Below, piece after piece: positions 4,378 to 55,402 of a DNA stretch of 62,502 nucleotides. The position numbers and the translations under genes are program-made. Each line of letters starts with the position of its first letter. Positions within the stretch are counted from its first letter, which is position 1. The notes beneath the pieces are model-generated. The model was not told the origin of the DNA and ran no database searches. It saw only the letters and a program-made list of their open reading frames with translations. This DNA is from Patescibacteria group bacterium (GTDB lineage Bacteria > Patescibacteriota > Microgenomatia > UBA1400 > UBA1449). The stretch lies in assembly GCA_050942955.1 (NCBI GenBank), contig JBMNOG010000007.1:1-62502 (forward strand). The letters are read 5' to 3'.

Positions 4378-5043
4378 ATGTCCTTTTTTAATCAAAATCC
4401 CAAACAACCAGATCCCGCTATTACACAAGACTCTACTGCTGCCCAGACTGCACCTTCTAGTCAGCTTGTTCAAGAAGTAGAGACGCTACCAGAAACACAG
4501 CTGCCAGAAACACCTACGCCAGAGGTACAAACACCCACTCCTCAACCTCAACAAGAAAATGCTGTTACTAATCAGTTGAATGGAAATCAATTAAATGAAA
4601 CGCCTCAAGCAACTCTCAATAACATCTCACTTTCACCAGACACAGTCGCTGCGGTTTCTCCGGAACAAAATAGTGATCTTATTACTCAACTCGAAGCCTT
4701 AAAAAAAGTCCCGGTAGATGAGGTTAGTGGAAAAATTGATGAGATTATTAGCTCTATGCGTGGTAGTACCCCCGAACCAGTTATCGAATCACCGCAACAG
4801 GCACCAACGCCTGTACCTCAAACACCGCAAACAGCAGAAGCGCCAACAGCTCCTTCGATGGACTTATCTGCACAAAATGATTTGAATATGACTACAGAAA
4901 CCCAACCGGCTCAATCCCAAATATCTCAAACAAGCCCTGATATGGCACAGGGCGGGGTAACTCAAGAAGCTGCCGCTGTAAATCCTGATTTTAATACTAA
5001 CCAACCGAATGATTCAGAAATGGTACCACCTACCAAGCTTTAG
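4378..5043 (+). CDS. Pro/Gln/Thr-rich low-complexity hypothetical protein
   Basis: 221-aa ORF, upstream TTGCAA-18-TATACT promoter (4315-4344), followed by a terminator. Confidence 0.7.
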   Translation: MSFFNQNPKQPDPAITQDSTAAQTAPSSQLVQEVETLPETQLPETPTPEVQTPTPQPQQENAVTNQLNGNQLNETPQATLNNISLSPDTVAAVSPEQNSDLITQLEALKKVPVDEVSGKIDEIISSMRGSTPEPVIESPQQAPTPVPQTPQTAEAPTAPSMDLSAQNDLNMTTETQPAQSQISQTSPDMAQGGVTQEAAAVNPDFNTNQPNDSEMVPPTKL

Positions 5044-5062
5044 TAAACTTTAAATAATACTT

Positions 5063-5090
5063 AAAAACCCACTGTTTCCAGTGGGTTTTT
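5063..5090. terminator. bidirectional intrinsic terminator
   Basis: Perfect 12-bp inverted repeat AAAAACCCACTG-tttc-CAGTGGGTTTTT between convergent genes. Confidence 0.85.
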
Positions 5091-5110: not shown

Positions 5111-5581
5111 CTAGCAAGTAGAAGTCTGTTCAATTGCTAAGCGGGTAAAAGAATCAACCTTTATATTTTCACCCAGTTTAGCAATCGCTTCTTTAACAAG
5201 GTCCTCAATGGTTCTTTTTGCGTCTCTGATATAGGTTTGCTTAAACAGTTCCTCTACATTTTCAGGATTCATTGAAGCTACCTGCATCGCAATTTCCCGA
5301 GCCAATTTTTGAAATTCTTCTGTTCTGGCTACAAAATCTGTTTCACAGGTCAATTTTACCAAAGCTCCAACCTTACCGCCTGTGTGGACATATGCTTCAA
5401 CTAAACCATCTCCGGTTTCTCTATCTGATTTTTTAGCCGCTTTATCTAAACCTTTTTGTCTCAACCATTCTTTGGCTTTTTCCATATCACTGTTTGACTC
5501 TGTAAGAGCTTGTCTTACTTCCATAACCCCGGCTCTGGTTTCTATCCTGAGTTTTTTGATCTGGTCAATGGTAACTTTCAT
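5111..5581 (-). CDS. tsf: elongation factor Ts (short form)
   Basis: IKKLRIETRAGVME, KAAKKSDR, CETDFVAR, LGENIKV; directly downstream of rpsB. Confidence 0.95.
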   Translation of the reverse strand: MKVTIDQIKKLRIETRAGVMEVRQALTESNSDMEKAKEWLRQKGLDKAAKKSDRETGDGLVEAYVHTGGKVGALVKLTCETDFVARTEEFQKLAREIAMQVASMNPENVEELFKQTYIRDAKRTIEDLVKEAIAKLGENIKVDSFTRLAIEQTSTC

Positions 5582-6755: not shown

Positions 6756-9338
6756 ATGTCCGAAAGTAAATCTGCTTCTAATTTGAGTTTTTTTGAGATT
6801 AGAGTTCCCAAATATTCAGAGGTTTCACCAGAAGCCATGGCGGCTTGTTTTCAGGCTTTACCTCAAATCAAAAACTCTATTTTTGATTCTCTTTTAGGTA
6901 AAGAGGAGGCTCTGACTTTTGAGTTAGTCACCTGGAACCAGCGTATTTACTTTATGGCTGCAGTACCGGCTAGCATTACCAGCTACTTTACAAGCCAGCT
7001 AACAGCCCAGTACCCCCAAGCTTTAATCTCACCAGTTGGGGACTATCTCCCCTTCTTTTTTCCGGAAAATAGCGACCAAAAAACTCAAATGCAAGTCAGC
7101 ACCTTTGGGAAAATCATCATGGCCAACCCTTTCTATCTACCGCTTAAAACTTACAAAGATTTTACTGACATTGATCCGCTCTCAACCATTTTAGGGACAC
7201 TAGCCAAAGCCGATCCTGATGATAAAATTCTGGTACAGTTTGTTGTTACCGCTGCTCCAAAAAGTTGGCAAAAACAAGGGTATTCTGTTGCTAATAAGCT
7301 TATACCCACCAGTGATCCTGAGAAGGTCATCCCTCACCCCCAAAAATCTCTCATTGAACAAAAAATCGCCCAGATAGGTTTTAATGTTGATATTAGAGCT
7401 TTGGTCGTTAGCTCAGACAAACACCATGCAGAAGCTGTATTAGCTAATCTAGCTGGCTCATTTGCCAGTGTCAGCCATGGTGACAGCAATCACTTAAAAT
7501 TAAAAATCCCGCTGCTTAGTAAAAGATCTTTGTTTGCTGAAATTATTGAGAGAAAACCTTCATTTAGTTTGAGTCCCCACGTACTGACTGCTGCCGAACT
7601 AGCTACGCTATACCATCTCCCTAACCAGGATTTGGTTTCAATTAAAAACATTGCCTGGGGCGGAACTTTAAAAGGTGAACCACCTGAGAACTTACCAATT
7701 GCCGCCGGACTTTCTGATAAAGAGAAGCAGGAAATCAACTTTTTAGCTAGGACTGAATTTAAGAATCAGGACACTGTTTTTGGTATTAAAAGAGTTGATC
7801 GAAGGAAACATATTTATATTATCGGGAAAACGGGTACCGGGAAATCAACACTTATTGCTAACATGGCAATTAATGATATGCGCAATGGCGAAGGTGTAGC
7901 TATTATTGATCCTCATGGAGATTTATGTGAAATAGTCCTTGATTACATCCCTAAACACCGACTCAATGACGTCGTCTACCTTGACCCAAATAGAGTCGAT
8001 AGTCCTTTCAGAATGAATCCTCTGGAATTAACTCAACCTGAGCAGGCAGAGTTGGTTGCTTCAGGGATTGTAGCTATTTTCCATAAGCTTTTCTCCTATT
8101 CCTGGGGACCTAGGCTGGAATACATTCTCAGAAACACTATTCTCACTTTAACAGCAATGCCCAATTCTACCCTACTTGATGTGCCAACAATCCTGACTAA
8201 CACTTCTTTCCGCAACCGCGTAACTGAGAAACTGAAAGATCAGACCCTTAAAAAATTTTGGACAGATGAGTTTAATCAACTTGACAACCGCGGCCGGACA
8301 GAAGCTATTTCTCCGATTTTAAATAAGGTCGGCCAGTTTATTACTTCTCCTAAAATTCGGGCTATTCTGGAACGACCCCATTCAAGCGTCAGTCTTGAAG
8401 ATGTTATGGATACAGGCAAGATTCTCCTCTTAAATCTTTCCCAAGGTAGAATTGGCGAGGATAACGCAGCCCTGCTTGGAGCAATGTTTATTACCAAGAT
8501 GCAGCTGGCAGCTATGAATCGGGTAAATGTACCCGAAGAACAGCGCAGAGATTTTTATTTATATGTTGATGAGTTTCAGAACTTCGCTACTTCATCATTT
8601 GTCAAAATCCTGTCTGAAGCAAGGAAATACCGTCTCAACCTGACAGTTGCTAACCAGTATACTGCCCAGGTTCAAGAGGATGTTCAAAAGGCAATTTTCG
8701 GCAATATTGGAACTCTTATTTCCTTTCTTGTCGGTTCAAGCGATGCTCGTTTGCTCAATCTTGAATTCGGGAATATTTATGAAGAATCAGATCTCGTTCA
8801 CTTAAACAATTACGAGATTATTACTAAGTTATCAATTGATAACCACACCTGTAGCCCGTTTGCCGCTAAGACTCTGCCTCTCCCTCGGTCAAAAAACAGT
8901 AACCGCGAAAAGGCTATAAGACTTTCTCTTGAGCGCTACGGAAAACCGAATAAACAAAAAAATCAACCGGACAAAATTCCATCTGAACCATCTAGAGAAA
9001 AACTCCAAGAAAAGATTCCAGAAGATCACTTAGAACGAAGAAAACAAGCTGAGGCAGCTGTACACAAACTTACACAACAAGGTATCGCTAGATACCCCAG
9101 TAACATAGCAAAACACAAAAGCAACCCACAATCCAAGAAAGAAGCTGGTGTGAATGCGTCAAAAGCGGAAAAATTTAAACATAATAATAAAATAGGTTAT
9201 GAAAACAAGAAAGAAGCTAATCGTTCACAAAAAATTGGTACAGAATCTCAAATCCATGACACCCAAATAAATTCCAAAAATGAACCGCATAATAAAGTCT
9301 CAAGGAGACCGATTTATGTAGTTGAAGAGGAAAAGTAA
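6756..9338 (+). CDS. VirD4/TraG-like (HerA/FtsK superfamily) coupling-protein-type ATPase
   Basis: Walker A GKTGTGKS, IIDPHGDL, Walker B LYVDEFQNF, SEARKYRL, ANQY; extra N-terminal domain and charged low-complexity tail typical of CPR homologs. Confidence 0.85.
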   Translation: MSESKSASNLSFFEIRVPKYSEVSPEAMAACFQALPQIKNSIFDSLLGKEEALTFELVTWNQRIYFMAAVPASITSYFTSQLTAQYPQALISPVGDYLPFFFPENSDQKTQMQVSTFGKIIMANPFYLPLKTYKDFTDIDPLSTILGTLAKADPDDKILVQFVVTAAPKSWQKQGYSVANKLIPTSDPEKVIPHPQKSLIEQKIAQIGFNVDIRALVVSSDKHHAEAVLANLAGSFASVSHGDSNHLKLKIPLLSKRSLFAEIIERKPSFSLSPHVLTAAELATLYHLPNQDLVSIKNIAWGGTLKGEPPENLPIAAGLSDKEKQEINFLARTEFKNQDTVFGIKRVDRRKHIYIIGKTGTGKSTLIANMAINDMRNGEGVAIIDPHGDLCEIVLDYIPKHRLNDVVYLDPNRVDSPFRMNPLELTQPEQAELVASGIVAIFHKLFSYSWGPRLEYILRNTILTLTAMPNSTLLDVPTILTNTSFRNRVTEKLKDQTLKKFWTDEFNQLDNRGRTEAISPILNKVGQFITSPKIRAILERPHSSVSLEDVMDTGKILLLNLSQGRIGEDNAALLGAMFITKMQLAAMNRVNVPEEQRRDFYLYVDEFQNFATSSFVKILSEARKYRLNLTVANQYTAQVQEDVQKAIFGNIGTLISFLVGSSDARLLNLEFGNIYEESDLVHLNNYEIITKLSIDNHTCSPFAAKTLPLPRSKNSNREKAIRLSLERYGKPNKQKNQPDKIPSEPSREKLQEKIPEDHLERRKQAEAAVHKLTQQGIARYPSNIAKHKSNPQSKKEAGVNASKAEKFKHNNKIGYENKKEANRSQKIGTESQIHDTQINSKNEPHNKVSRRPIYVVEEEK

Positions 9339-9357
9339 AATCGTTAGACTTGTATAT

Positions 9358-9639
9358 ATGGCATCCATTCAGTCAACACCGGAAAGCGTTAGCAAATCCC
9401 ATACTATCCAACCTGAGTCAGTCAGCTCTAAATACACGCAACAAGAAAATTTATGTTCTCCTGAAAGAGCAAAACAACAATTAAAAGAGATGGGGTTCCC
9501 CCATTGGACAAATGTTCCCCTTGGAAAATCTGATTACCTTAATGCGCTAGTCAGAGCGGCAACATCTTCAGAGCCACAGGATCTGAATAAACTAATAATT
9601 GAATCAAGGCGAGATATTACACAACAACGTAACAGGTAA
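9358..9639 (+). CDS. hypothetical protein
   Basis: ORF after the ATPase; ATG at 9358 preferred over the overlapping TTG at 9322. Confidence 0.5.
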   Translation: MASIQSTPESVSKSHTIQPESVSSKYTQQENLCSPERAKQQLKEMGFPHWTNVPLGKSDYLNALVRAATSSEPQDLNKLIIESRRDITQQRNR

Positions 9640-9698
9640 AGATATTGGGGGCTCTACTCTTCTCGAGGACGTTAAACAATTTCCCCAGCATAGAAGTG

Positions 9699-10316
9699 TC
9701 AATCTATAGTATTTCCTAAAAAATCAAAGTATTTAAGCCACTCCTTTTTAAATCCTAGGGTAATAAACCGCTTTTCGCATTCCTCTTTGCTTACCCCGGC
9801 TTCGCACCATTTTTTGCCTAACATTATCATTGTCTCCCTGAATTCATAAGGGAAAATAATCCAGGCATCCGTTTCTTCAGCGTAGTAGTCTGGCTTGATA
9901 ACCGAATGAGGTTTGTAAAAAAGCGTCGCAGTAGCTATGTCTTCTATTCCGAGAGAATTTAGGTAGTCTTTGGCAAATGAAAGCGAGCCACCGGTATCGG
10001 CCACATCATCAAACAGCAGTATCCTCTCCCCTGATACAGAAACAGGCAAGTCCTGGTAAATTTCAGGTTTTTCCAGACGCTTATTTATCCCACCGTAGAA
10101 TTTTACCCCCATGCTGGCTACTTCTTTTATACCTAAAAAATCAACTAAAGAACGGGTAAACGGCCAACCGCCTTTGGCTAAAGTCACAATCCGGTCAAAT
10201 TTACGACCATCTTCAAGAATTTTTTGTGAAACTGTAAACGCTAGCTCATTTAGATCGTTAAGAGTTGGAGTAATAAAGTTAAGACTATCTCCAAAACAAA
10301 TATTGTTAAGCTTCAT
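9699..10316 (-). CDS. type I phosphoribosyltransferase (probable purine/xanthine salvage)
   Basis: DRIVTLAKGG, PRPP-binding ILLFDDVADTGGSL, ETDAWIIFPYE. Confidence 0.85.
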   Translation of the reverse strand: MKLNNICFGDSLNFITPTLNDLNELAFTVSQKILEDGRKFDRIVTLAKGGWPFTRSLVDFLGIKEVASMGVKFYGGINKRLEKPEIYQDLPVSVSGERILLFDDVADTGGSLSFAKDYLNSLGIEDIATATLFYKPHSVIKPDYYAEETDAWIIFPYEFRETMIMLGKKWCEAGVSKEECEKRFITLGFKKEWLKYFDFLGNTID

Positions 10317-10403
10317 AATACTTCAAGTTTACAGCTGTTACTTAAATAGCGAAAGTGCCAGGGATTTGTTTATGCTAATCTACTCTGTTATAATATCACG
10401 CTT

Positions 10404-11150
10404 ATGAGTAACTGCATTGAAAAAACTGCAGAAAGACCTGTTTACACCCTCCCCACCCTCTTTGTGTCTTCAAGCGAGCAAAAAGTCGGTATGTTAGTCT
10501 CTCTAGGAGTAGATATCCAAAGTCTTCCCTTATCCATAACGCCCTCAGAAGAAGAATGGCAGAGTTTACTTGGTAAAAGCCCAGTTTCACTTTACGGTTA
10601 TAACCCAGAGTTGCTTGCTTACATAAAAGCCGAGTATGCACACCACCGCTACCCGGAAAGAAAAATCGTTGCCTCAGATACAATTAAGCTAGTACAACAG
10701 AGAGAAAGAAATCTACCGCTTGAGAAACCAAAGTCACCTGAGGAGGCAGTAGAACAAGTACTTCTCCAAGCTGGTAACACCATTATCCAAAAAGGTGCTC
10801 TTGCTTTTTGGAACGGCAGGGTTTGGCAGATTGGCACTATAGAAACTGCTATGAGAATAAAACCTACAACTAAACTAAGAGCGCAAGAATACGTAAGGCA
10901 AAACTATCAAGATATACAACATATTCCTGGATCTTTACCCATACTAAATGATGTAGTAAGGAATGAATTCTACGAAGACAACTTCCCAGTTACTCTAAGA
11001 CACTATTCAGCTTTAGATAATAGCAACACACCTATTATTTGGGAAGAAACAATATCAATAAAGAATATGGGAATAGAGAAGGTGTTTGAGTATATTAACG
11101 GCTTCGCTCCATCTCTTTTGTCCAAAATGGGATTGAGAACAGAAGAATAG
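10404..11150 (+). CDS. divergent Maf-like nucleotide pyrophosphatase
   Basis: LFVSSSEQK..L..LG (cf. ILASxSPRR..L), IVASDT (cf. ADT), LEKPKSPEEA....L..AG (cf. LGKP....EA...L..LSG), C-terminal INGF. Confidence 0.55.
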   Translation: MSNCIEKTAERPVYTLPTLFVSSSEQKVGMLVSLGVDIQSLPLSITPSEEEWQSLLGKSPVSLYGYNPELLAYIKAEYAHHRYPERKIVASDTIKLVQQRERNLPLEKPKSPEEAVEQVLLQAGNTIIQKGALAFWNGRVWQIGTIETAMRIKPTTKLRAQEYVRQNYQDIQHIPGSLPILNDVVRNEFYEDNFPVTLRHYSALDNSNTPIIWEETISIKNMGIEKVFEYINGFAPSLLSKMGLRTEE

Positions 11151-11151
11151 T

Positions 11152-11610
11152 TTATTCTTTCAAGCTAATGACTTTTATCCCATTTTTCTTAAGTAGCGCA
11201 GCAAAAACTCCATCTCCCTTTATTAAATCTGTACCACTATAAATGATGCCATATCCACAAGATGGGCTTTTTTCTCTTAGGTACGCATGAGTAATACCTT
11301 TTTCTAAAGCAATCTTACAGGCTCTTCTTGCTCCTTTTATAAACGCTTTGGTGTAGTCTTTTCCATCTTCACCCATAACTTTTGCCTTACCCTCTAAAAC
11401 ATCATGACCGTCACCGCCAACAATCTGACAAGGAGTGCGAGGTGTTGACAAGCCCGCTAATACTTCCGGACATACTATTAATAGTTCTCCTTCAGAAAGA
11501 AGATCAACTACTGTTTTATGGGCTTTATTCTTTCCATCATACCTGCAGTTTGCTCCGGCAACACAGGCACTTACCAATATCACTTTCCCCTTAGTAGTAT
11601 GCATATTCAT
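11152..11610 (-). CDS. DUF523 family protein (TudS-like thiouracil/thiouridine desulfidase, Fe-S)
   Basis: ILVSACVAGANCRYDG, CPEVLAGL.TPR, LREKSPSCG, G.GVFAALL. Confidence 0.88.
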   Translation of the reverse strand: MNMHTTKGKVILVSACVAGANCRYDGKNKAHKTVVDLLSEGELLIVCPEVLAGLSTPRTPCQIVGGDGHDVLEGKAKVMGEDGKDYTKAFIKGARRACKIALEKGITHAYLREKSPSCGYGIIYSGTDLIKGDGVFAALLKKNGIKVISLKE

Positions 11611-11625
11611 AATTAAAATCTTAGC

Positions 11626-12654
11626 TTAGTAAGTGTTCTCCATAAAACTAGAGTCACCTTTGAAACTAAGTACTGTGTCTCCATAATCCTGTTCTGGTTG
11701 TACAACTCTACTCGACATAGTCATATTCCCTTGTTTACCAGGAAGTTCTCCTAGCTTGCTTTCTACAAATCTTTTCAGCCTATCCGTATCAATATCCCGA
11801 GGGTTAGTTCCGGCAGCCTTGCACTTCATCTCATCCTTATGTATCTCTAAAGGGAAACCAAGCCTACCAAGAACCAAAACAGGGTCTACTGGTGACTCAA
11901 AAACTCGATAAAAAGGCGATCCTACATGAGATTCAGGATACTTCTCCTTAAAATAATGCTGCATTTGTTCTATTTGAACAGGTGACTGTTCTGGCCATTG
12001 TTGCCTACCTTGGTACTCATTATACCCTAGTGCAATATGCGTAGCTCCCAAGTAACGAGCAAGCCGGACTAAAGTGTCTTCCATTCCAATTTTACAGGCT
12101 GAACAAAAAGAAGGATAGCCTAGATCCTCCCTATCCTTTTCAGCAGTTTGCATGATAAAGTCCCCATTGAAGGTCGATATATCAATATATAAATGACCAA
12201 TATCTGGATCAAATGTACTATTTACAGTTCTCCCCATATGCTCCGCTATTCGCAGAGCTTGTCTACGAGGAGCTTCGATTTGAGTAGAAAAGCCGTTTAA
12301 AACAGTAACAAGGTGAATTCTTCTCTCATTTGCTCTTTCTCCGCTAAAAAGTCCAAGCGTAAGAGCAGCAATGGAAGAAGAGTCTCTCCCTCCGGAAAAC
12401 GGAATAATTATGTTACCTTCTTGTCCATAGAAATTATCCAACTCATCGAGTGAAGCTTCTAAAAGTTCTAGAGATCTTCTTTCCATTGCTTCCGGGGAAC
12501 TTACAAGTGAAAGGGTTTTTTCCAAATCATCTGGAGGAAGATTTTTTTTGAGTAAATGTTCTCGATACTCATCTGTCCCTAAATACTGTAAGGTTTGTGT
12601 AAAGGTAGCATCTGTTTGAATAAAAGTTTCTACTCTTCTTTCAGGTGTATTCAT
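11626..12654 (-). CDS. PP-loop adenine nucleotide alpha-hydrolase, ThiI/TtuA-like with CxxC plus distal Cys, no THUMP domain
   Basis: PFSGGRDSS PP-loop, CSACK..M....A..LGA..IALG...Q....PEQS, third Cys in MKCK about 90 aa later; ATG at 12654 preferred over TTG at 12666. Confidence 0.7.
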   Translation of the reverse strand: MNTPERRVETFIQTDATFTQTLQYLGTDEYREHLLKKNLPPDDLEKTLSLVSSPEAMERRSLELLEASLDELDNFYGQEGNIIIPFSGGRDSSSIAALTLGLFSGERANERRIHLVTVLNGFSTQIEAPRRQALRIAEHMGRTVNSTFDPDIGHLYIDISTFNGDFIMQTAEKDREDLGYPSFCSACKIGMEDTLVRLARYLGATHIALGYNEYQGRQQWPEQSPVQIEQMQHYFKEKYPESHVGSPFYRVFESPVDPVLVLGRLGFPLEIHKDEMKCKAAGTNPRDIDTDRLKRFVESKLGELPGKQGNMTMSSRVVQPEQDYGDTVLSFKGDSSFMENTY

Positions 12655-12664
12655 TTTATGTAAC

Positions 12665-12910
12665 AAAAAAACTTTTTCCTGCTGTATAACGTTTCCAGAA
12701 AAAGTTCTTGTTTTAACTATAAAAAACCCGGCGCTATATGGCCGAGTTAATCCAAATTATTAGCAACATAAGTGTGTTGCTTTATATATGTTTTTGCTAT
12801 AAAAAAGCCCGCTAAAACAGTGCGGGTTACAGAAATTCCTATACGTGTTGGGGAAATATATATTTCCAACCATATGTAATTATTACATATCTTACCTCCG
12901 CTTGTCAAGC
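12665..12910 (-). promoter_or_regulatory. promoter, operator-like palindrome and three tandem terminator hairpins (candidate attenuator)
   Basis: TTGACA at 12908-12903; palindrome ATATGTAAT-T-ATTACATAT at 12872-12890; hairpins plus U-tracts at about 12826-12801, 12747-12721 and 12706-12665. Confidence 0.7.
12760..12873 (-). CDS. putative leaderless Cys-rich leader peptide (37 aa)
   Basis: ATG 5-6 nt after the -10 element; translates MVGNIYFPNTYRNFCNPHCFSGLFYSKNIYKATHLCC-stop; below the ORF-track length cutoff. Confidence 0.45.
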   Translation of the reverse strand: MVGNIYFPNTYRNFCNPHCFSGLFYSKNIYKATHLCC

Positions 12911-12931
12911 AGCTGTTTCAAAGAAGGAATT

Positions 12932-13232
12932 CTATCCATTAATGCTTCTGACAGTCATACATTCTTCATATATTGCTTCTAGTGCCTCTACAGTTTTATC
13001 AAGTTCTCCCGTTCTGTTTATTATTAAAAAATGGGCATGATTCAGATAACTTAGATCACTAACCAGTTGCTCAAGTCTCTTCTCTACAGTTTGTAAGCCA
13101 TCTAACTTTTTATCTTCAGATCTCCATTCGACTTCTCTTCTACACAACCCATGAGCAAGATCGAAGCTTAATTTCTGGAGTTAAGATAGTAGATGATAAT
13201 TTAAGTACCTCCGGCATATCAAAGGAGTACAT
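12932..13232 (-). pseudogene. possible frameshifted remnant of a guanylate-kinase-like C-terminal half
   Basis: ATG at 13232 in one frame joins the 12932-13147 frame; EKRLEQ...HFLIINRTGELDKTVEALEAIY resembles the Gmk C-terminus; no P-loop. Confidence 0.35.
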
Positions 13233-13249
13233 CCCTCTTTACCGCTATG

Positions 13250-13891
13250 TTACAGGATTTTTTTCTTTTGAAGACTATTGACAATGGCTTCGTGAACCGC
13301 CTCAATTGACTTTGAGGCATCGATAACTATCCAACGATCATGGTCATTTTTCTTGGCTAGCTTCAGATATCCGGCTCTCACTTTTTCATGGAAATCTTTT
13401 TGCTCCATATCAAGTCTGTCCATTTTACCTGTCTCAGCTCGGCGGGATAAACCTACTTCTACTGGTACATCAAGCAGAATTGTCACATCAGGGTAGGTAT
13501 TTTGGGTAGAAATAGTGTTGAGTTGCTCAATAAGTTCCTCACCAAAACCACGGACAATCCCTTGGTAAACAAGGCTTGAATCTCGGGTGCGGTCACATAA
13601 AACTACTTTTTCAGCTTTAAGAGAAGGAAGGATTAGCTCTCTGTAAATCTGGGCCCTGGCAGCCTGAAAAAGGAGCACTTCTGTTGTAAACGCCATACCT
13701 ATGTTTTTAGCGCTTAATACTACCTCCCGGATTTGCTCAGAGATAACGGTTCCACCAGGTTCTCTGGTGATAACAACATCTTTTCCTTTTTTTCTAAACT
13801 CGTCTGCCAGACGGGCAATCTGGACTGATTTACCTCCACCCTCTCCTCCTTCGAAACTGATTAGCAGCCCCTTTTTTTCGTTTTTTTTCAT
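13250..13891 (-). CDS. tmk: thymidylate kinase
   Basis: LISFEGGEGGGKS, TREPGGT, LFQAARAQ, LCDR, YQG, PDVTILLDV; SD GGAGGAGG and TATAAT upstream. Confidence 0.95.
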   Translation of the reverse strand: MKKNEKKGLLISFEGGEGGGKSVQIARLADEFRKKGKDVVITREPGGTVISEQIREVVLSAKNIGMAFTTEVLLFQAARAQIYRELILPSLKAEKVVLCDRTRDSSLVYQGIVRGFGEELIEQLNTISTQNTYPDVTILLDVPVEVGLSRRAETGKMDRLDMEQKDFHEKVRAGYLKLAKKNDHDRWIVIDASKSIEAVHEAIVNSLQKKKIL

Positions 13892-13927
13892 AGCCTCCTC
13901 CCGATGTTTTTCTTATTATAGACAAGA

Positions 13928-14081
13928 AAGTACTAGGTACCAAGAGCTAAGTACTAAGAACCGTGGGCTAGGCGCTAAGAACTAGGTGCGAAGAACCAAG
14001 TGTTAGGTGCAAGGTACGAAAATCTAAGCACTGAGAACCAAGTGTGAAGAACGAAGAGCAAAGTGTTAGGTGCGAGGTAGT
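13928..14081. repeat. degenerate 7-bp tandem array (22 units)
   Basis: Unbroken 7-nt register: aagtact aggtacc aagagct aagtact aagaacc gtgggct aggcgct aagaact aggtgcg ... aggtagt. Confidence 0.85.
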
Positions 14082-14186
14082 AATAGCAAGAAGTAAGAAA
14101 TTAGCAGGGAGTAGTTAGAATACAAAGATCTTATTTCCACCCTTCCCTTTTCTTTTCTTGTTATAACAAACCATCAAGAAGGTGAT

Positions 14187-14657
14187 TTAGCACAGGAGGT
14201 CATTCCATATACTGGAAGGAATGCTGATGGTTACAGCTGTGGGATCAGGACGGTCAAGGCAACAAGGCTCGACTCGAACTTCTTCGATAGAAGAGGCAAA
14301 ACCCTGTCCAGACACCAACCGGAAGTACCCCCAATATTGGGTAGTGTACTCCCCCTGGAAATAGAAGGGATCGAAGACCCCCTCATAGATAACTCGGCCA
14401 TCCTCAACCGCCTCAGTCTTGTGAAGCAGAACCGTAATAGGATCAATGAAGACCCAAACTTCTTGAAGTTCCACGTTCTGGTCAATCGCCACTCGAACCA
14501 TCATCCGATCAGCGATGACCTCACCAGGCTGAGGACTTAAAATCTCAGCTAAGTCTTCAAATGCAACGGGGTTTACCACTTCCTGCGCTTCACTTCCTGG
14601 CGCCCACGCGACTACGACCAACAGCATACACACGACCAACATCTTCACCCTGTTCAT
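14187..14657 (-). CDS. secreted hypothetical protein (possible Ig-like fold)
   Basis: Signal peptide (MNRVKMLVVCMLLVVVAWAPGSEA), ILSPQPGEVI motif typical of Ig-like domains; SD GAGGAG; visibly GC-richer than flanks. Confidence 0.65.
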   Translation of the reverse strand: MNRVKMLVVCMLLVVVAWAPGSEAQEVVNPVAFEDLAEILSPQPGEVIADRMMVRVAIDQNVELQEVWVFIDPITVLLHKTEAVEDGRVIYEGVFDPFYFQGEYTTQYWGYFRLVSGQGFASSIEEVRVEPCCLDRPDPTAVTISIPSSIWNDLLC

Positions 14658-14876
14658 GATCCCTCTCCTCTGATGTAGTAAGTATTCGGCTCAGCGTATA
14701 TTAAATGGGCTTTTGTTTTAACCCATATTCATGTCCAACTAAAAATCTATACCAAGAGTCTGCTTTCGCAAAGTACGTAACTGTTGCTTCAAAAACAGGC
14801 TCCGGCATAGAACATTCGTCCTTTTAAAGAACAAAGGTAAATTTCACTGCTCAAACTGGTAAAGCTACCTAAAAAT

Positions 14877-14898
14877 AAAAAAGACAGCCGAAACTGTC
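14877..14898 (-). terminator. intrinsic terminator
   Basis: Minus strand GACAG-TTTCGG-CTGTC followed by a T-tract, downstream of the AmmeMemo gene. Confidence 0.55.
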
Positions 14899-14949
14899 AA
14901 TCAAATATTATAGGATTAATATCAGCAAAAATCAAGACGCAGGTTATTA

Positions 14950-16503
14950 TCACCCTTCTTTGAAGACTTGAGCAGAAAAGGTATACAATGAAACTTCCGG
15001 ATCAAGGTAACAAGCGTTTGGCAGACCGGCTTTTTGGCTGCAAAGCTCTCCTAAAAACTCCTCCAAGTTCCACCCAGTTTCTGTTGCTACTTGAGGTAAA
15101 AAGGTACCTGATTGGGATCCTTTTTGTACAACCACACCATCTTTCCCAAGATTTATTTCTCTCCAGTTGGAGATTTTCTTTTTGGGTGTCATGACAGAAA
15201 TTTCGATCTCAATTTCAGGCAGTTCATCTTTTGTTACCGGTTGAAAGCGGGTGTCTTTTGTAGCCGCCGCAACAGCCATATTCTGGATAACTTTATATAA
15301 AGGCCTACTTGGTTCAAACTCACCAATACAGCCACGAAGCTCTCCATGTTTGTGTAATGTCACAAAAGCTCCCAAGTTACGGGAAAGTTCTAAATTGGTA
15401 GAAGTAACTTCCGTAACTTTTCCGTCTTCAAAATAACTTTCCAGAGTTTTTCTGGCAATATCTAGAGCTTCATATTTTGCTAGCTCAGAAAGCTCGTCGT
15501 TTTTCTCTATCTTTCCCTTTATCCCGATAGCTCCATATCCAACTACCCGGGACACATCCCCTGTCACATCTCCCGAATTCTCATACCCGAGCTGAATATA
15601 GTCATTAAAACCCAATAGTTCACTCACTCTTAAACCAACCTCAACCGCTTTCGCTCCGCACGCAAATGTATCAACGTTTGAGTACTGAGTCGTTAACTGA
15701 GTCAGCTTCTGCTTAAACTGACTCTGCTTGCCTGTCAGTATCGCTTCTATCGTCTCTCCATCAACTTGTCTGGCAGTATCTGCATCAGGATAGTGGGAAA
15801 GATCCGTACTCACCACCAACAGAGTTTCTTCATCAAAATTTTTAGCAATTCTTTGAGCCAAGTCACTTATTAGTTGCTCCGAAGAATTACTCACTAAAAC
15901 CGGTACAATCGTGAAATTTTTCAACACTTTCTGCAAAAAAATAAGTTCTACCTCAAGTGAATGTTCTTTCTCATGAGGATTTACATCAGCACGGATGTTC
16001 TGATCCGTACTCACTAAAGCTTGGGCTAAAGTTTTATTCACTTCAACTTCCCCCAACGGAGTTTGCCATGAACCTTCTGCATAAATAGCCGCATGGTCAA
16101 AATATACCTGATGGCTAACACCTAAAAGAATTACTTTTTTGTAGTTTTCTCCCTTGATTTGCTTAAATGCACGAGCTGCCATTTGTCCGGAATACTCAAT
16201 ACCAGCATGGGGAACAAACAGAATTCGGTAAGTCCCGTCACCTGCGACCTTATCAGCTTTATTAAGAAATGCATCAAGCTGATTACTAAGTTCGTCGACG
16301 TTTTTTGGATAAAAACTACCTGCAACAGCTGCCTGCCTTACCATTCTCTCTTGAACAATAGATGTTACCTCTGGAGAAGTGGGTGTTTGTGAAGAAGGGG
16401 TATTATCTTTCCGGCTTAGTAGGATTACTGTAGCTACCCCAATGAGAACAAGATTTATGAAGAGAAACATGACGATGGGAATGATTTTACTGCCTGTACT
16501 CAT
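14950..16503 (-). CDS. membrane-anchored AmmeMemoRadiSam protein B (Memo) / protein A (AMMECR1) fusion
   Basis: Memo: RQAAVAGSFYP, PHAGIEYSG, EHSLEV, STDLSHY, CG; AMMECR1: GAFVTL...LRGCIG, TFLPQVA, KAGL; N-terminal TM helix. Confidence 0.92.
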   Translation of the reverse strand: MSTGSKIIPIVMFLFINLVLIGVATVILLSRKDNTPSSQTPTSPEVTSIVQERMVRQAAVAGSFYPKNVDELSNQLDAFLNKADKVAGDGTYRILFVPHAGIEYSGQMAARAFKQIKGENYKKVILLGVSHQVYFDHAAIYAEGSWQTPLGEVEVNKTLAQALVSTDQNIRADVNPHEKEHSLEVELIFLQKVLKNFTIVPVLVSNSSEQLISDLAQRIAKNFDEETLLVVSTDLSHYPDADTARQVDGETIEAILTGKQSQFKQKLTQLTTQYSNVDTFACGAKAVEVGLRVSELLGFNDYIQLGYENSGDVTGDVSRVVGYGAIGIKGKIEKNDELSELAKYEALDIARKTLESYFEDGKVTEVTSTNLELSRNLGAFVTLHKHGELRGCIGEFEPSRPLYKVIQNMAVAAATKDTRFQPVTKDELPEIEIEISVMTPKKKISNWREINLGKDGVVVQKGSQSGTFLPQVATETGWNLEEFLGELCSQKAGLPNACYLDPEVSLYTFSAQVFKEG

Positions 16504-16513
16504 TAAAACAGAT

Positions 16514-17539
16514 CTACTTTTCTTCTTCTAACGCTTTTTTGAAAAATTTCAAGTCTCTCTCAACTACTGTATCCCAATTACCGACCATATGGTGGTCAGC
16601 TCCGGGATACACGAAGTACTCCATATCAATTTCAAGCTCTTCCATTTTTTGGGCAAATTCATTTGACCACTCAACCGGAACAGCATCATCTGCTGTTCCC
16701 TGGTGCAACTGAAGCGGGGCTTTAATTCGGTCCAGATGCTTGGTAATACAGAAGTCATAAACATCATAATCCTTTTCCAATCTGCTAATTTCTGCCCGTA
16801 AAGCTTTGCCTTCATCCTCAAACTCATCTGTAAAGTAAAGAATTGAGTACGGGAAAGGCTTGGTTACGGGTGCCCAAAGAGTGGTCGGAATCGGTTTTTG
16901 GGTAATCTCCAGAACAGACAAAGCAATCTGGCCGCCATTTGAGTGCGCCCAGATAGCAATTTTATTAGCATCTGCTTGAGGCAAGGTTTTAATTGATTCA
17001 AGTAAGTTTAAAACAACTACCGGGTTATTGAATCGTTCCCACCAAACATCATTTTCAGGCATATCAGAGCCGCCGTACCCTAAAAAATCAGGTGCAATCG
17101 TGATATATCCATTTTTTGCAAAGAAACCTGCTGCCCGTTCTGTACCAATACCTGTCCGGTACATTGACTGATCAACATACCCGCGAAGCATAATAACTAC
17201 CGGCATTTTATGAGAAAAAGGGGTAAGAGGAATATTTAGCATTCCGGTAACCTTTTTCCCATCGGAAGTGAAAGAAAACAAGTGGGATTCAAAACCATCT
17301 TCCTCTTCACTTTCCTCATTCAGCTTTTCTTCAAGAGTAATTGTACTGGCTTGATACGTTCTTTGGGAAAGAGCATCAAACGTAAAGGCAAGAAGAGGTT
17401 TTGGTGTTGGTTCAGGGGTAACTGTGGGAACGTCTGAATCTGAAGAAGTATATTCTGACCGGGTTTGCAAAACATATGCCGCTCCCCCTCCAATAAACAG
17501 ACAAACGATACCGGCAATAGCTAGCAAGACTTTATTCAT
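16514..17539 (-). CDS. membrane-anchored alpha/beta hydrolase (S9-like)
   Basis: APDFLGYGGSD, nucleophile AHSNGG, LHQGTADDAVP, YPGADH; N-terminal TM helix. Confidence 0.88.
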   Translation of the reverse strand: MNKVLLAIAGIVCLFIGGGAAYVLQTRSEYTSSDSDVPTVTPEPTPKPLLAFTFDALSQRTYQASTITLEEKLNEESEEEDGFESHLFSFTSDGKKVTGMLNIPLTPFSHKMPVVIMLRGYVDQSMYRTGIGTERAAGFFAKNGYITIAPDFLGYGGSDMPENDVWWERFNNPVVVLNLLESIKTLPQADANKIAIWAHSNGGQIALSVLEITQKPIPTTLWAPVTKPFPYSILYFTDEFEDEGKALRAEISRLEKDYDVYDFCITKHLDRIKAPLQLHQGTADDAVPVEWSNEFAQKMEELEIDMEYFVYPGADHHMVGNWDTVVERDLKFFKKALEEEK

Positions 17540-23719: not shown

Positions 23720-25927
23720 CTATACCGAGCACGCCGAAAACCCACAGGAAGAACAGCTCTTACAGCCTTCATGGATTTGAAGCGGGCCACCGCATTGAGG
23801 ACAAGACTCAGATTTCTTGGCTTTTATTTTATTGACTATCGCTCTCCCCTTCTCGCTCCCTAAAATACCAGAGGTGAAGTTAACTTTTCTCTTTTTACTT
23901 ACCTGGCCTACATTCAAAACCTGCTCTGACCTTGAAGTATCGCGGTAGACTGTAATTCCCTTACACTTAATTTTCCAAGCTAGGATGAATGCTTGGGCTA
24001 CATCCTCAACTGTTGCATTAGAATTAAGGTTAATAGTTTTAGAAACAGCATTGTCTGTGAATTTTTGCCAGGCAGCCTGCATTTTTATATGGTCTTGAGC
24101 TTTAAGGTCATGAGCTGTGACAAATATCTTTCTAACTGACTCAGGAATTTCTTCAATGTGCTGGATTGATCCCTCTTCCATAATTGTCTCAACCAACCCA
24201 TTCTCAGATAGGTGCAGTTTCTGCAAGTGCCGCATAAGGTCTTTATTGATTTCCGGCAGCTTGTACCCACCCATTGCTTGTTTGTAAAATGCCAAAGCAA
24301 AATGCGGTTCAATTCCGTATGAACAACCGGCTGCCATTGCAATTGAGCCTGTGGGAGCAATTGTGGTAATGGTTGCATTTCTCTGGGGCTTTCGTCCTTG
24401 TTTATCCCAAAGGCTTCCTTTCCAGTTAGGGAACGCACCTTTTTCTTTAGCCAGAACCTGGCTTTCTAATAACCCTTCTGTTTGAATAAACTGAGAAAGC
24501 CTTTCTGCTAGTTTATAAGCTTCTTGAGAATTGTACGGGATTTCCAATCTCACCAGCATATCTGCCCATCCCATTACACCCAGACCGATTTTCCGATTCG
24601 CTTTAACTGTTTTCTCTACTTTTTCCAAAGGATAGGTGCAGATAGTAACTACATCATCAAGCATTCTCACTGCCAAATGAACAGTTTCTTTGAGCTTCTC
24701 CCAGTCGATTTCAAATTTTCTATCCCCGTTTGTGCCAGTAATTTTAAGGTGCTGAGCTAAATTAATACTACCCAAGTTGCAGGCTTCATATGGCAAAAGC
24801 GGCTGTTCTCCACAGAGATTGACTGATTCAATCACTCCCACATGAGGAGTTGGGTTGTACTTATTGATTTCATCTAAAAAGATAATACCAGGATCACCAT
24901 TCTTCCAGGCCATTGTAACCGCTAGATCAAAAATTGACCGAGCATCGACAGTGTTAACAATCTCACCTGTACGGGGATTAATGAGATCCCACGGCCTATC
25001 AGTCTCAACCGCCCGCATAAACTTGGAAGTTACTCCAAGGGAAAAGTTGATGTGGTTTAAGGCACTCTCCTCTTCTTTGCAAGTCAAAAACTCAAAAATA
25101 TCCGGATGAGAAACAGGTAAGACGATCATATTCCCTGAACGTCTACCGCCAGCCTGAAGAAGCATGTCTGAGGCTTTATTTAAGATATGCATAATCGCTA
25201 CCGGTCCGCAAGCTCTCCCGGTTGTTGTAGCTACTAAATCCCCTTTCGGTCTAATCTTTCCCAAGGAAAAACCCACCCCTCCGCCATTCTTTTTCAAAAT
25301 TGATGACTCTTTAACTACTTCAAACACACCCTCAACGCTATCCGGCATCGGCAGGACAAAGCAATTAGCCAGCTGATTATTGACTGTACCGGCGTTAGCC
25401 AGAGTCCTTCCTCCGGGGAAAAACCTCAGCTGCGACATAACTTCGTAAAACTTAGTTTGCCACGTCTTTTTGGCCTTAGGTTCTGCACTAGCAAGAGCGC
25501 GAGCCACTCTTTCAAACATTTCCTTCGGTGTTTCAACAATTGCTCCCTGATCATCTTTTCTCAGATACTTGTTGGCAATTACGACTAGTTGGTTATAGGA
25601 GAGTCCTAAATCATCTTTTACCCCCAAACCCCGACCGGCTCTAGCTTCCTGGCGCTGCTTTTCCCGAGCGATGATATAGGCTTTGGCTATCTGGTATAAG
25701 CTCTCATCAATTAAAATTCTTTCTACCGTATCTCCAATATCATTTGTGCCAATCACTGTTTCTTTACCGTGTTTTTTTTTAAGGTCCTTATACACCAACC
25801 CAGTGACACGTTTAGCTAAATCTTTGTTCACCTGATTAATATTCTCCTGGGCACGAATAATGGAAGACAGGATTTTTTCCTGGGAAAAAGGTTGAAGACT
25901 ACCTGATCGTTTATTTACTTGCCACAT
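23720..25927 (-). CDS. nrdJ: class II (adenosylcobalamin-dependent) ribonucleotide reductase with ATP-cone
   Basis: N-terminal ATP-cone (V.KRSG...F...KI), PGGRTLANAG, LANCFV, NLCGEQPL, CNLGSINL, TTIAPTGSI, C-terminal CPQCG..L...EGC..C..CGFSAC. Confidence 0.93.
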   Translation of the reverse strand: MWQVNKRSGSLQPFSQEKILSSIIRAQENINQVNKDLAKRVTGLVYKDLKKKHGKETVIGTNDIGDTVERILIDESLYQIAKAYIIAREKQRQEARAGRGLGVKDDLGLSYNQLVVIANKYLRKDDQGAIVETPKEMFERVARALASAEPKAKKTWQTKFYEVMSQLRFFPGGRTLANAGTVNNQLANCFVLPMPDSVEGVFEVVKESSILKKNGGGVGFSLGKIRPKGDLVATTTGRACGPVAIMHILNKASDMLLQAGGRRSGNMIVLPVSHPDIFEFLTCKEEESALNHINFSLGVTSKFMRAVETDRPWDLINPRTGEIVNTVDARSIFDLAVTMAWKNGDPGIIFLDEINKYNPTPHVGVIESVNLCGEQPLLPYEACNLGSINLAQHLKITGTNGDRKFEIDWEKLKETVHLAVRMLDDVVTICTYPLEKVEKTVKANRKIGLGVMGWADMLVRLEIPYNSQEAYKLAERLSQFIQTEGLLESQVLAKEKGAFPNWKGSLWDKQGRKPQRNATITTIAPTGSIAMAAGCSYGIEPHFALAFYKQAMGGYKLPEINKDLMRHLQKLHLSENGLVETIMEEGSIQHIEEIPESVRKIFVTAHDLKAQDHIKMQAAWQKFTDNAVSKTINLNSNATVEDVAQAFILAWKIKCKGITVYRDTSRSEQVLNVGQVSKKRKVNFTSGILGSEKGRAIVNKIKAKKSESCPQCGGPLQIHEGCKSCSSCGFSACSV

Positions 25928-25943
25928 AAAATTGGTTAAAAAA

Positions 25944-25969
25944 GAAAGTTTACTGCTCAGTAAACTTTC
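25944..25969. promoter_or_regulatory. perfect 12-bp inverted repeat upstream of nrdJ
   Basis: GAAAGTTTACTG-ct-CAGTAAACTTTC, 16 nt upstream of the start codon. Confidence 0.6.
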
Positions 25970-26059
25970 ACATTAATTGCTTCCTTTTTATACTATAAAG
26001 TTTTCACACGATTCAACTGGAAAATAGGCATTCAAACCCGATCAGACATAAGTAATTAA

Positions 26060-52155: not shown

Positions 52156-52188
52156 AAAATCCCGCACTGTTTGGTGATGGGATTTTTT
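52156..52188 (+). terminator. intrinsic terminator after rpmG
   Basis: AAAATCCC...GGGATTTTTT hairpin. Confidence 0.75.
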
Positions 52189-54688: not shown

Positions 54689-55402
54689 CTACTTTTCAGT
54701 GTAAGCCAGAAGTTCAGATACTGTTACGAATCGATACCCCTTTGTCTGCAATCCATCAACTATCTTGCTAATTGCTTCTTTTTGGCTACTGCAGGATTCA
54801 CAAAATGGATGAAGTAATATGATAGAACCTGGCTTTGTATTTTCTACTGTGTAATCAATAAGAAAATCTGCATTAGATCCATATGTATCAGGTTCTACAT
54901 CCCAAGTAACTGTCTTAATATTATGTTGCTTCAAATACCAAGGCAGTCCAATAAGTTTTTTCCCGTATGGTGGACGAAAATGAATGTCTCCTTGGTAGCC
55001 TGCTTCTTGTATTAATTTATTGGTGCTTTCTATCTCATTTAATATATAAGATGGAGATTTAAACCACATCCGCTCATGTGAATATGAATGATTACCCAAC
55101 TCATGACCAGCAGATGCGATAGCTTCACCGATTTGAGGTTTCTTTTCCAATTCACTACCTATTACAAAAAATGTAGCTTTGACATTTTTTTCTTGGAGAA
55201 TTTTTAATACATCTTGCGTATATTCGGTGGGGCCATCATCAAATGTTAAAGCCACAACCTTTTCGTTTGTTTCCACCCGCGGCACAATTTCACCAAAAAA
55301 CTGAAATGTTCGTGATCTGCTGACTTGAAATAGACTGTACCCAGCAATCAAGAATACAAGAATAAGTGTAAATGGTGCGATTATCACTTTTTTTCTGTTC
55401 AC
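54689..55402 (-). CDS. polysaccharide (peptidoglycan) deacetylase, NodB family
   Basis: ALTFDDGP, HELGNHSYSH, FRPPYG, W.V, GSIILLH. Confidence 0.93.
   Translation of the reverse strand: MNRKKVIIAPFTLILVFLIAGYSLFQVSRSRTFQFFGEIVPRVETNEKVVALTFDDGPTEYTQDVLKILQEKNVKATFFVIGSELEKKPQIGEAIASAGHELGNHSYSHERMWFKSPSYILNEIESTNKLIQEAGYQGDIHFRPPYGKKLIGLPWYLKQHNIKTVTWDVEPDTYGSNADFLIDYTVENTKPGSIILLHPFCESCSSQKEAISKIVDGLQTKGYRFVTVSELLAYTEK

Follow-up and report, generated by a model that had tools for sequence, protein, structure and literature searches.

The subject of this study is the leader of a two-gene operon on contig JBMNOG010000007.1 of a Patescibacteria group bacterium (assembly GCA_050942955.1); the whole stretch of DNA that was analyzed, 62,502 nucleotides in length, is referred to as the window in the following. 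The operon lies on the minus strand and comprises a gene for a PP-loop ATPase with an SGGRDS motif (11626..12666; start codon TTG at 12666 or ATG at 12654) and a gene for a TudS-type [4Fe-4S] 2-thiouracil desulfidase (11152..11610; Pfam PF04463, E = 8.7e-41). Upstream of these genes lie a promoter, a short open reading frame (ORF) and a series of hairpins, which an earlier note, made from the sequence alone, had read as a candidate cysteine-sensing attenuator. As described below, a module of promoter, start codon and terminator hairpin recurs at this place in seven independent lineages, and we read it as a putative attenuator that responds to translation.

Architecture of the leader

The leader begins at a sigma-70-type promoter (12879..12908; all leader coordinates are in window numbering, on the minus strand), with the -35 box TTGACA at 12908-12903, an 18-nt spacer containing a TG, and the -10 hexamer AATAAT at 12884-12879 (TG-n-AATAAT at 12886-12879). 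It scores 11/12 in a consensus scan, in addition to its extended -10 element, and is the top match within the 8 kb from 9000 to 17000. The earlier note had located this promoter correctly, with its TTGACA and a TAATAAT-like -10 element, as well as an ATG 5-6 nt further on, which we find at 12873-12871, 5 bases past the hexamer. In all seven lineages the ATG of the short ORF lies exactly 5 nt past the -10 hexamer and lacks a Shine-Dalgarno motif. The short ORF is predicted to be leaderless, with transcription starting at or next to the A of its AUG.

Of the 45 genes of the window, only 9 possess a Shine-Dalgarno-like motif; in 11, a -10-like hexamer precedes the start codon by 5-10 nt, most often by 7 nt. 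Examples are the starts at 45099 and 50541 and, on the minus strand, the start codons at 55402, 31430 and 53572 (genes listed as 54689, 29790 and 52343, respectively). Given these two counts, leaderless mRNAs look common, which suggests that they are widespread in this genome.

The short ORF (12760..12873) consists of 37 codons and a TAA stop codon (MVGNIYFPNTYRNFCNPHCFSGLFYSKNIYKATHLCC). As the earlier note had seen, four of its codons specify cysteine (Cys15, 12831-12829; Cys19, 12819-12817; Cys36, 12768-12766; Cys37, 12765-12763), and it ends with TGT-TGC-TAA at 12768-12760, the stop codon occupying 12762-12760. In a cysteine sensor, scarcity of Cys-tRNA would stall the ribosome at these codons and thereby gate the terminators, a reading that we consider improbable. 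In its favor, the four Cys codons compare with a mean of 1.16 in comparable spurious ORFs, and the short ORF alone ends with Cys-Cys when set against 156 spurious ATG-initiated ORFs of 30-60 codons in the window. Yet 8 of these 156 ORFs (5%) likewise have at least four Cys codons, and the Cys content by itself is unremarkable.

The leader RNA is predicted to form five hairpins, of which the first, H0 (12841..12875), was absent from the earlier description. It is a 5'-terminal hairpin (GGUUGG...CCAAC) that encloses the ATG of the short ORF, with the AUG at its base; we regard it as a candidate pause or synchronizing hairpin, which may also compete with initiation. H1 (12801..12826; -8.6 kcal/mol) has a 5-bp GC stem, formed by CCCGC (12826-12822) and GCGGG (12812-12808) around a 9-nt loop, and is followed by U6 (12806-12801); Cys15 and Cys19 lie on either side of its 5' arm, the former just before the hairpin and the latter within it. 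Hm (AGCAACA/UGUUGCU, 12762..12781; -7.0 kcal/mol) has a core pairing of GCAACA (12780-12775) with TGTTGC (12768-12763), and its 3' arm is made up of the codons for Cys36 and Cys37 and the stop codon's first base. H2 (AACUCGGC...GCCGGGUU with a U-run, 12721..12748; -10.9 kcal/mol), which was also picked up by a terminator scan, has its stem at 12748-12725 and a T6 run at 12726-12721, the first two T of which are inside the stem. Judged by their G+C-rich stem-loops and U-runs, both H1 and H2 have the form of intrinsic terminators. Lastly, H3 (12665..12704; -5.7 kcal/mol) is a weak, A/U-rich hairpin (CUUUUUCUG...CAGCAGGAAAAAG; hairpin proper at 12704-12672) followed by U7. It holds the only Shine-Dalgarno-like sequence, AGGA, ahead of the TTG start of the PP-loop gene. 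H3 probably contributes a separate layer of control, at the level of translation. H1, Hm, H2 and H3 are all present where the earlier note had placed them, including its third hairpin and U-tract ahead of the gene (H3) and the Cys-Cys-stop inside the GCAACA/TGTTGC hairpin (Hm).

Of 200 shuffled versions of the 231-nt leader, 199 fold less well than the leader itself (z = -3.4). The earlier note had also suggested a check for mutually exclusive antiterminator and terminator states, of which we see none: minimum free energy and centroid folds of the seven leaders contain independent hairpins only. In Rfam 15, the leader region matches no family at E-values up to 10, with best scores at noise level (Trp_leader, 19.8 bits at a threshold of 41; VqmR, 22 at a threshold of 76), and at the gathering score the whole window yields five tRNAs and nothing else. 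The suggestion that H1 and H2 are a duplicated unit did not hold up. Their common frame, TTTTTTATAG, occurs twice in the window, but a frame as good or better arose in 20 of 100 shuffles, and it is kept in neither the closest strain (L004, see below) nor the lineage L017; we dropped the idea as unproven, although a duplication may have occurred.

Conservation of the module in distant lineages

Loci of the PP-loop family were gathered by profile scans, using a profile built from a 5-sequence alignment, and by exact look-ups; a single-protein scan of GTDB genomes with the PP-loop protein gave no match. Two of the loci, L002 and L003, come from the same strain as the window and are uninformative, and L004 and L005 represent one related strain. 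The seven lineages considered here are the window together with L004, and L017, L019, L015, L011, L014 and L022. The PP-loop proteins of the latter six are 31-42% identical to that of the window.

In all seven, the region directly upstream of the PP-loop gene contains the same module: TTGAC(A/G), 17-18 nt, a -10 hexamer, exactly 5 nt, ATGGT, a 5' hairpin, and a G+C-rich hairpin followed by U6-7. The -35 box, the -10 hexamer and their spacing thus recur in each of the six distant lineages, with TTGACG as the -35 box of L022, and in five of the seven lineages the ATGGT is extended as ATGGTTGG. The pattern TTGACA-N28-30-ATGGT occurs once per locus, at the same place, against an expectation of 0.05 per 62 kb; this holds for the window as well, and no second copy of the module is found in it or in the other loci. 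While L017 is syntenic with the window (tmk, gmk, leader, PP-loop, TudS, Maf), the upstream neighbors elsewhere are unrelated: L011 has a transposase fragment, L014 a divergently oriented AAA ATPase gene, L015 an ABC transporter and L022 a HEPN protein. The comparison of loci thus demonstrates both the module and its fixed position.

The terminator hairpins of these leaders have folding energies between -8 and -14.6 kcal/mol, and U6-7 comes after them. Since MAFFT misaligned the three types of H1 stem, covariation in H1 was read by hand. Four lineages (window/L004, L017, L011 and L014) have the stem CCCGC/GCGGG, whereas L019, L015 and L022 have CGGUC/GGCCG with a U-run at the same position. 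Different stems at the same place indicate that the function of H1 was kept as its sequence changed. The arms of H2 are found in L017, too (AACUCGGC/GCCGAGUU, -12.8 kcal/mol), whereas H3 is present neither there nor in the other lineages. An equivalent of H0 with the 5' arm GUUGG is seen in L017, L019, L015 and L022, and with the arms AUGGUUUA/UAAACCAU in L011; runs of U4-U8 follow H0 in L017, L019, L015, L011 and L014.

The position of H1 relative to the gene is telling. In L011, the start codon of the PP-loop gene directly follows the U-run of H1, in L014, L019 and L022 it does so within at most about 20 nt, and in none of these four is there another promoter between H1 and the gene. A start codon beside the U-run, with no other promoter, implies that the operon can be expressed only by read-through of H1, as expected of an attenuator. 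It would be otherwise if H1-H3 were merely the tandem terminators of the upstream tmk and gmk genes, or the end of a separate small RNA, and the PP-loop operon had its own promoter. Indeed, no terminator lies between the end of a guanylate kinase gene remnant (12932) and the promoter in the window, so that H1-H3 are also the first terminators encountered by transcripts from upstream, and the promoter with H0 and H1 would yield an RNA of about 70 nt. However, the window has no promoter-like site between H1 and the gene, the four lineages above leave no room for one, and the module accompanies the PP-loop gene even behind unrelated upstream genes; we regard this explanation as very improbable.

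The frame opened by the conserved ATG bears a consistent relation to H1: it runs through H1 in four lineages and stops 7-8 nt before the H1 stem in three. In the first group, the frame has 37 codons in the window, ending 11 nt before H2; 41 codons in L004, ending at the base of H2; 54 codons in L017, ending in the loop of H2; 30 codons in L019, where its TGA overlaps the ATG of the gene (ATGA); and 42 codons in L015, where it ends 13 nt before the GTG of the gene. In the second group, it has 13 codons in L011, 12 in L014 and 16 in L022, ending 7, 8 and 7 nt before H1, respectively. The ORFs that reach as far as H2 (37, 41 and 54 codons) are accordingly those of the leaders that possess H2, and they are longer. 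The product of the dinucleotide-shuffle probabilities for all seven frames coming within 10 nt of H1 is 0.0015, at a reach threshold that was set after the data were seen, and the ORFs exceed their shuffles in length (Fisher P = 0.011), although the single-lineage P values are weak (0.02-0.57).

What is encoded, by contrast, is not kept. The peptides share only Met-Val(-Gly), H1 is read in different frames in different lineages, and no amino acid is common to the seven lineages as a codon run. As to cysteine, the window ORF has four Cys codons and that of L004 two, whereas the homologous ORFs of L017, L019, L015, L011, L014 and L022, six of the seven lineages, have none. This speaks against a cysteine-sensing attenuator. 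The comparison that the earlier note had proposed, of regions upstream of orthologous PP-loop genes, thus gives a divided result: the hairpins recur, the Cys codons do not. We also discarded readings of the peptide as the precursor of a ribosomally synthesized and post-translationally modified peptide or as a type I toxin, in view of its unconserved sequence and the varying frame through H1.

Some further family members have leaders of a different kind. In two PP-loop paralogs from a Candidatus Levyibacteriota metagenome-assembled genome (MAG), L006 (2836-2925) and L007 (2866-2931), we observe TGCTATAAT and, after it, a hairpin TGTTGTC...(G)ACAACA immediately ahead of the ATG. We considered this TGTTG/CAACA hairpin as a counterpart of Hm, but the order of its arms is reversed, and we treat the resemblance as coincidence. 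In L016 (850-990; family member P0005), a 9-codon frame that starts with GTGGTT overlaps the 5' arm, AACACCC, of a long hairpin, which ends with GGGTGTT and U7; the spacing from the -10 element differs from that of the module. The same principle may be at work in this leader in a degenerate form.

Divergence from the closest strain

The leader of L004, whose PP-loop protein is 95% identical to that of the window, allows a comparison at short distance. The two PP-loop genes differ in 6.3% of their bases (11, 8 and 46 differences at the three codon positions) and in 8.7% of their 4-fold degenerate sites. Against this background, the 100 nt that include the promoter and the ATG are identical, and a second identical block of 74 nt, which includes H3, extends from the 3' arm of H2 to the start codon (12732 to 12659). 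Considering the 6-9% divergence of the adjoining gene, the probability of the latter identity is about 0.001-0.008, and the values for the two flanks span about 1e-4 to 8e-3. The leader of L004 has the same five hairpins (z = -3.3). The two flanks and the hairpin structure appear to be under selection, which supports the attenuator proposed below.

Between these flanks, the middle 130 nt are only about 65% identical (window 12733-12862 versus L004 about 923-1050, or some 35% divergence between completely identical flanks). This could reflect the recombinational replacement of an allele or a very fast turnover that preserves the hairpins. The pairing of H0 and Hm appears to have been kept by compensatory changes: in H0, one U:A pair is replaced by G:C through a double change, and in Hm, which reads ACAACA/UGUUGU in L004, an A:U pair has taken the place of G:C and the 5' arm has moved by 1 nt. 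A G-to-U mismatch weakens H2 in L004 to -5.8 kcal/mol.

The short ORF of L004 is open over its 41 codons and has no indel relative to the window up to codon 37. The 39 differences between the two ORFs are spread over the codon positions as 15, 10 and 14, which indicates that the peptide is not under purifying selection. Together with the different frames in which H1 is read, this fits a leader ORF whose translation matters and whose product does not.

For the cysteine sensor, the comparison is again ambivalent. Cys15 is replaced by Ile and Cys19 by Tyr even in this closest strain, whereas Cys36-Cys37 is retained (TGT TGC to TGT TGT) despite the divergence of the surrounding 130 nt. A variant with better geometry could be built on this pair, in which a ribosome stalled at Cys36-37 would be kept from reaching H2, so that the operon would be on only when cysteine is replete. 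Nevertheless, two adjacent Cys codons would be retained by chance with a probability of about 0.1 at this divergence, and these six bases also make up the 3' arm of Hm, a hairpin that is itself kept by compensatory change; codon and hairpin arm are therefore inseparable as explanations of the retention.

The conservation of H0 also bears on a different type of attenuator, which would act independently of translation: a protein or small ligand could bind the leader RNA at H0 and the linker, or RNA polymerase could respond to nucleoside triphosphates (NTPs) at the U-runs. The ATG would then merely belong to a stretch that is conserved as initial transcribed sequence and as hairpin arm. This is in line with ATGGTTGG forming the 5' arm of H0 in most lineages, where the AUG is partly paired, with the compensatory change that keeps H0, and with the unconserved peptide. 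Conversely, the search against Rfam returned no match, no fold offers an alternative antiterminator pairing, and the stems are conserved and the loops and linkers variable, which is the opposite of what a ligand aptamer would show. Furthermore, such a mechanism leaves unexplained why the ATG frame reaches the terminator, and why it is longer where H2 exists. We consider it possible, if doubtful.

Just upstream of the promoter, a 71-codon ORF of the window (12932-13147, minus strand) is the C-terminal remnant of a guanylate-kinase-like gene, which is intact in L004 (36-854, 272 aa; TIGR03263, E = 3.5e-28) and in L017; the strain of the window has lost about 520 nt of it.

The downstream operon

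The PP-loop protein has 342 or 346 residues, depending on the start codon, and no match in Pfam. Invariant in its family are an SGG motif, a PxxCxxCK motif and a further cysteine, amounting to three invariant cysteines. The family is rare: it forms two clusters in a word-indexed search of 5.8 billion proteins and has about 32 representatives among 1.84 billion proteins, the closest homologs of the window protein being found in a Candidatus Levyibacteriota MAG. A structure model with a predicted local distance difference test (pLDDT) score of 93 has its best PDB match in YcfA of Erwinia amylovora (E = 6e-9, target TM-score 0.8), a 6-thioguanine thioamide synthase, with further matches to NcsA, TtuA, LarE, QueC and GMP synthase. 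On its way to 6-thioguanine, YcfA adenylates GTP and adds L-cysteine, free L-cysteine being the sulfur donor (PMC12494993).

At every locus with an identifiable downstream gene, the TudS gene directly follows the PP-loop gene. Frequent neighbors are genes for a phosphoribosyltransferase (PRTase) or UPRTase, a PNP/UDP phosphorylase, Maf, and guanylate, thymidylate or deoxynucleoside kinases. The pair looks like an uncharacterized thionucleotide pathway and probably acts on thiolated nucleotides. The earlier expectation of a downstream Fe-S/sulfur operon was fair insofar as TudS and a YcfA-like enzyme are sulfur-related; the surroundings, however, are those of a thionucleotide and nucleotide-salvage cluster, not of cysteine biosynthesis. 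PyrR-type control through the nearby PRTase gene was considered and rejected, as there was no match to a PyrR-binding RNA and the PRTase looks HGPRT-like.

These findings touch on two of the alternatives above. NTP-sensing leaders are known from nucleotide metabolism, to which the neighbors belong, and this suits control independent of translation. For the cysteine sensor, YcfA is the closest solved relative of the PP-loop protein, and because YcfA consumes L-cysteine, a state that is on when cysteine is replete would suit a YcfA-like enzyme; on the other hand, the operon contains no gene for cysteine biosynthesis or uptake.

A proposed mechanism

We propose, with roughly even confidence, that the leader is a transcription attenuator of the PP-loop/TudS operon, which is switched off by a translating ribosome. 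The strong promoter would start transcription at or next to the A of the AUG, so that the RNA would be leaderless for the short ORF. RNA polymerase would then meet H1, in all lineages, and H2, in the sub-lineage of the window, and the folding of these hairpins, if not prevented, would stop transcription ahead of the gene. A ribosome that starts at the 5' AUG and follows close behind the polymerase would cover the 5' arm of each terminator, either by translating through the hairpin or by sitting on the stop codon 7-8 nt before it. A covered arm would result in read-through, whereas the hairpins would fold and transcription would end where no ribosome is closely coupled. The output would consequently be set by leaderless initiation and by an elongation that keeps pace with the polymerase, and H0, with the U-run that follows it in several lineages, could serve as a pause element like those of pyrBI, trpL and hisL. 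In published work on E. coli, the first coupled ribosome represses terminators that lie within an ORF or at most roughly 10-27 nt past its stop codon, and in pyrBI this repression depends very steeply on distance (PMC4824070).

Candidate signals are UTP-sensitive pausing at the U-runs or the general capacity for translation initiation; by the evidence of the homologous leaders, cysteine is not the conserved signal. Hence, of the earlier proposal, the attenuator survives in the architecture of a putative leaderless ORF and terminator that is common to seven lineages, and its cysteine signal does not. More tentatively, and with rather less conviction than we have in the attenuator as such, we suggest an as yet undescribed class of attenuator in bacteria resembling the candidate phyla radiation (CPR), which would sense translation-initiation capacity: the competition between leaderless initiation by the 70S ribosome and folding of the 5' hairpin would decide whether one to three terminators are masked, and so set the expression of the YcfA-like enzyme and TudS. 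This specific form strikes us as somewhat unlikely. In the lineage of the window, the Cys-Cys next to the stop codon might add a cysteine-replete condition for the on state to this sensing of capacity.

Several points weigh against an attenuator that depends on translation, besides the reach threshold chosen after the fact and the weak single-lineage P values mentioned above. Where transcription starts, whether it ends at the hairpins and whether the short ORF is translated are all predictions from sequence, as is the physiological signal; a search of RNA-seq runs returned none that contains the locus. The ORF would be open in both the window and L004 by chance with a probability of about 0.13. 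The AUG is placed at the base of H0 (-5.5 to -8 kcal/mol), which would hinder 70S binding at the 5' end, and the conservation of ATGGTTGG could be due to its place in the 5' arm of H0 or at the start of the transcript, not to its codons. No U-run follows H0 in the window, L004 and L022, although a pyrBI-type UTP sensor needs one. H3 lies 56 nt past the stop codon of the short ORF, so that masking by the ribosome would leave it uncovered. Finally, the module is absent from four members of the family: L006 and L007 of the Levyibacteriota, L020 and L021.

Other terminator-like elements of the window may be noted here. The leader (25928-26030, minus strand) of a ribonucleotide reductase gene (23720-25927; ATP-cone and large subunit) has, in this order, a promoter-like TTGAAT-18-TATAAA, a Shine-Dalgarno-like AAGGA, a start-stop ATG-TGA, a hairpin GAAAGTTTAC...GTAAACTTTC, and U6; the ATG-TGA abuts the 5' arm of the hairpin, and the ATG of the gene lies 10 nt past the U6. 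This may be another terminator gated by ribosome occupancy, as far as its layout suggests. Furthermore, a perfect bidirectional terminator (ACCCACTGGAAACAGTGGG, 5048-5086), with T-runs on both strands, sits between the convergent genes 4378-5043 (plus strand) and 5111-5581 (minus strand). A 12-mer, CCCGCACTGTTT, which the leader shares with a terminator near 52183, was set aside, as by a rough estimate it is within chance for a 250-nt query. A permissive census of terminators in the window was too noisy for quantitative use.

Relation to known attenuators

To our knowledge, hardly any work has been done on the regulatory RNA of CPR/Patescibacteria-like organisms, as they are uncultivated and few transcript data exist for them. 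In the present case, comparison alone reveals a cis-regulatory module that was kept across seven lineages despite the low identity of their PP-loop proteins. If the proposed mechanism is true, it would bring ribosome-mediated attenuation to reduced genomes, in a form that requires neither a Shine-Dalgarno motif nor an antiterminator, and would provide a handle on an uncharacterized pair of enzymes. The comparison also corrects a tempting over-reading, as Cys codons in one leader are no evidence of cysteine sensing.

The closest parallel is the pyrBI leader. As summarized in PMC4824070, which cites Turnbough, Roland and colleagues, its ORF is translated through the terminator, with UTP-sensitive pausing. 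Here, too, the structural gene is closely preceded by an intrinsic terminator that a leader ORF enters or traverses, and in all seven lineages the ORF passes through the terminator or ends near it. Likewise, the ribosome would occlude the terminator hairpin directly, with no need of an antiterminator; in several lineages, the attenuator is preceded by a hairpin with a U-rich stretch; and the controlled genes belong to pyrimidine or nucleotide metabolism. The pyrBI leader peptide, however, has a ribosome-binding site, whereas the ORF described here is predicted to be leaderless. The U-runs after H0 are not present in every lineage, the sub-lineage of the window has two or three terminators in series, and the organisms are CPR-like.

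The earlier note had drawn its parallel from mycobacteria, where leaderless short ORFs with at least two consecutive conserved Cys codons form a 'Cys ribulon' (Canestrari et al., 10.1101/834739). They precede cysteine-metabolic genes, and the stalled ribosome unmasks a downstream ribosome-binding site; two consecutive Cys codons are enough (10.1101/834739), which speaks for the cysteine sensor. Our leader resembles these ORFs in that a short ORF, predicted to be leaderless, is the first cistron of the operon, in that two consecutive Cys codons occur in the window and L004, and in that the position of the ribosome on the ORF is proposed to control the downstream genes. There are differences, too. 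The Cys-Cys is confined to the window and L004, and six of the seven homologous leaders lack Cys codons altogether. Nor do these codons sequester the gene's ribosome-binding site as in mycobacteria: UGUUGC pairs inside the ORF, in Hm, and the AGGA lies in H3, and what we propose is the masking of terminators instead of the unmasking of a ribosome-binding site. Lastly, the genes serve thionucleotide and nucleotide salvage, not cysteine metabolism: a YcfA-like PP-loop protein and TudS, and elsewhere PRTase, PNP, Maf and kinases.

Like the classical trpL and hisL leaders, the element combines a short ORF in the leader with a possible pause hairpin and has an intrinsic terminator before the operon. 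It differs from them in having no codon run for a single amino acid and no mutually exclusive antiterminator/terminator pair, and in that the ribosome would block termination by direct occlusion. Leaderless versions of such amino-acid leader-peptide attenuators have been reported in Corynebacterium. Set against these systems, the element appears, on the comparative evidence, to be a new form of ribosome-mediated attenuation that CPR-like bacteria have conserved in a rare operon.

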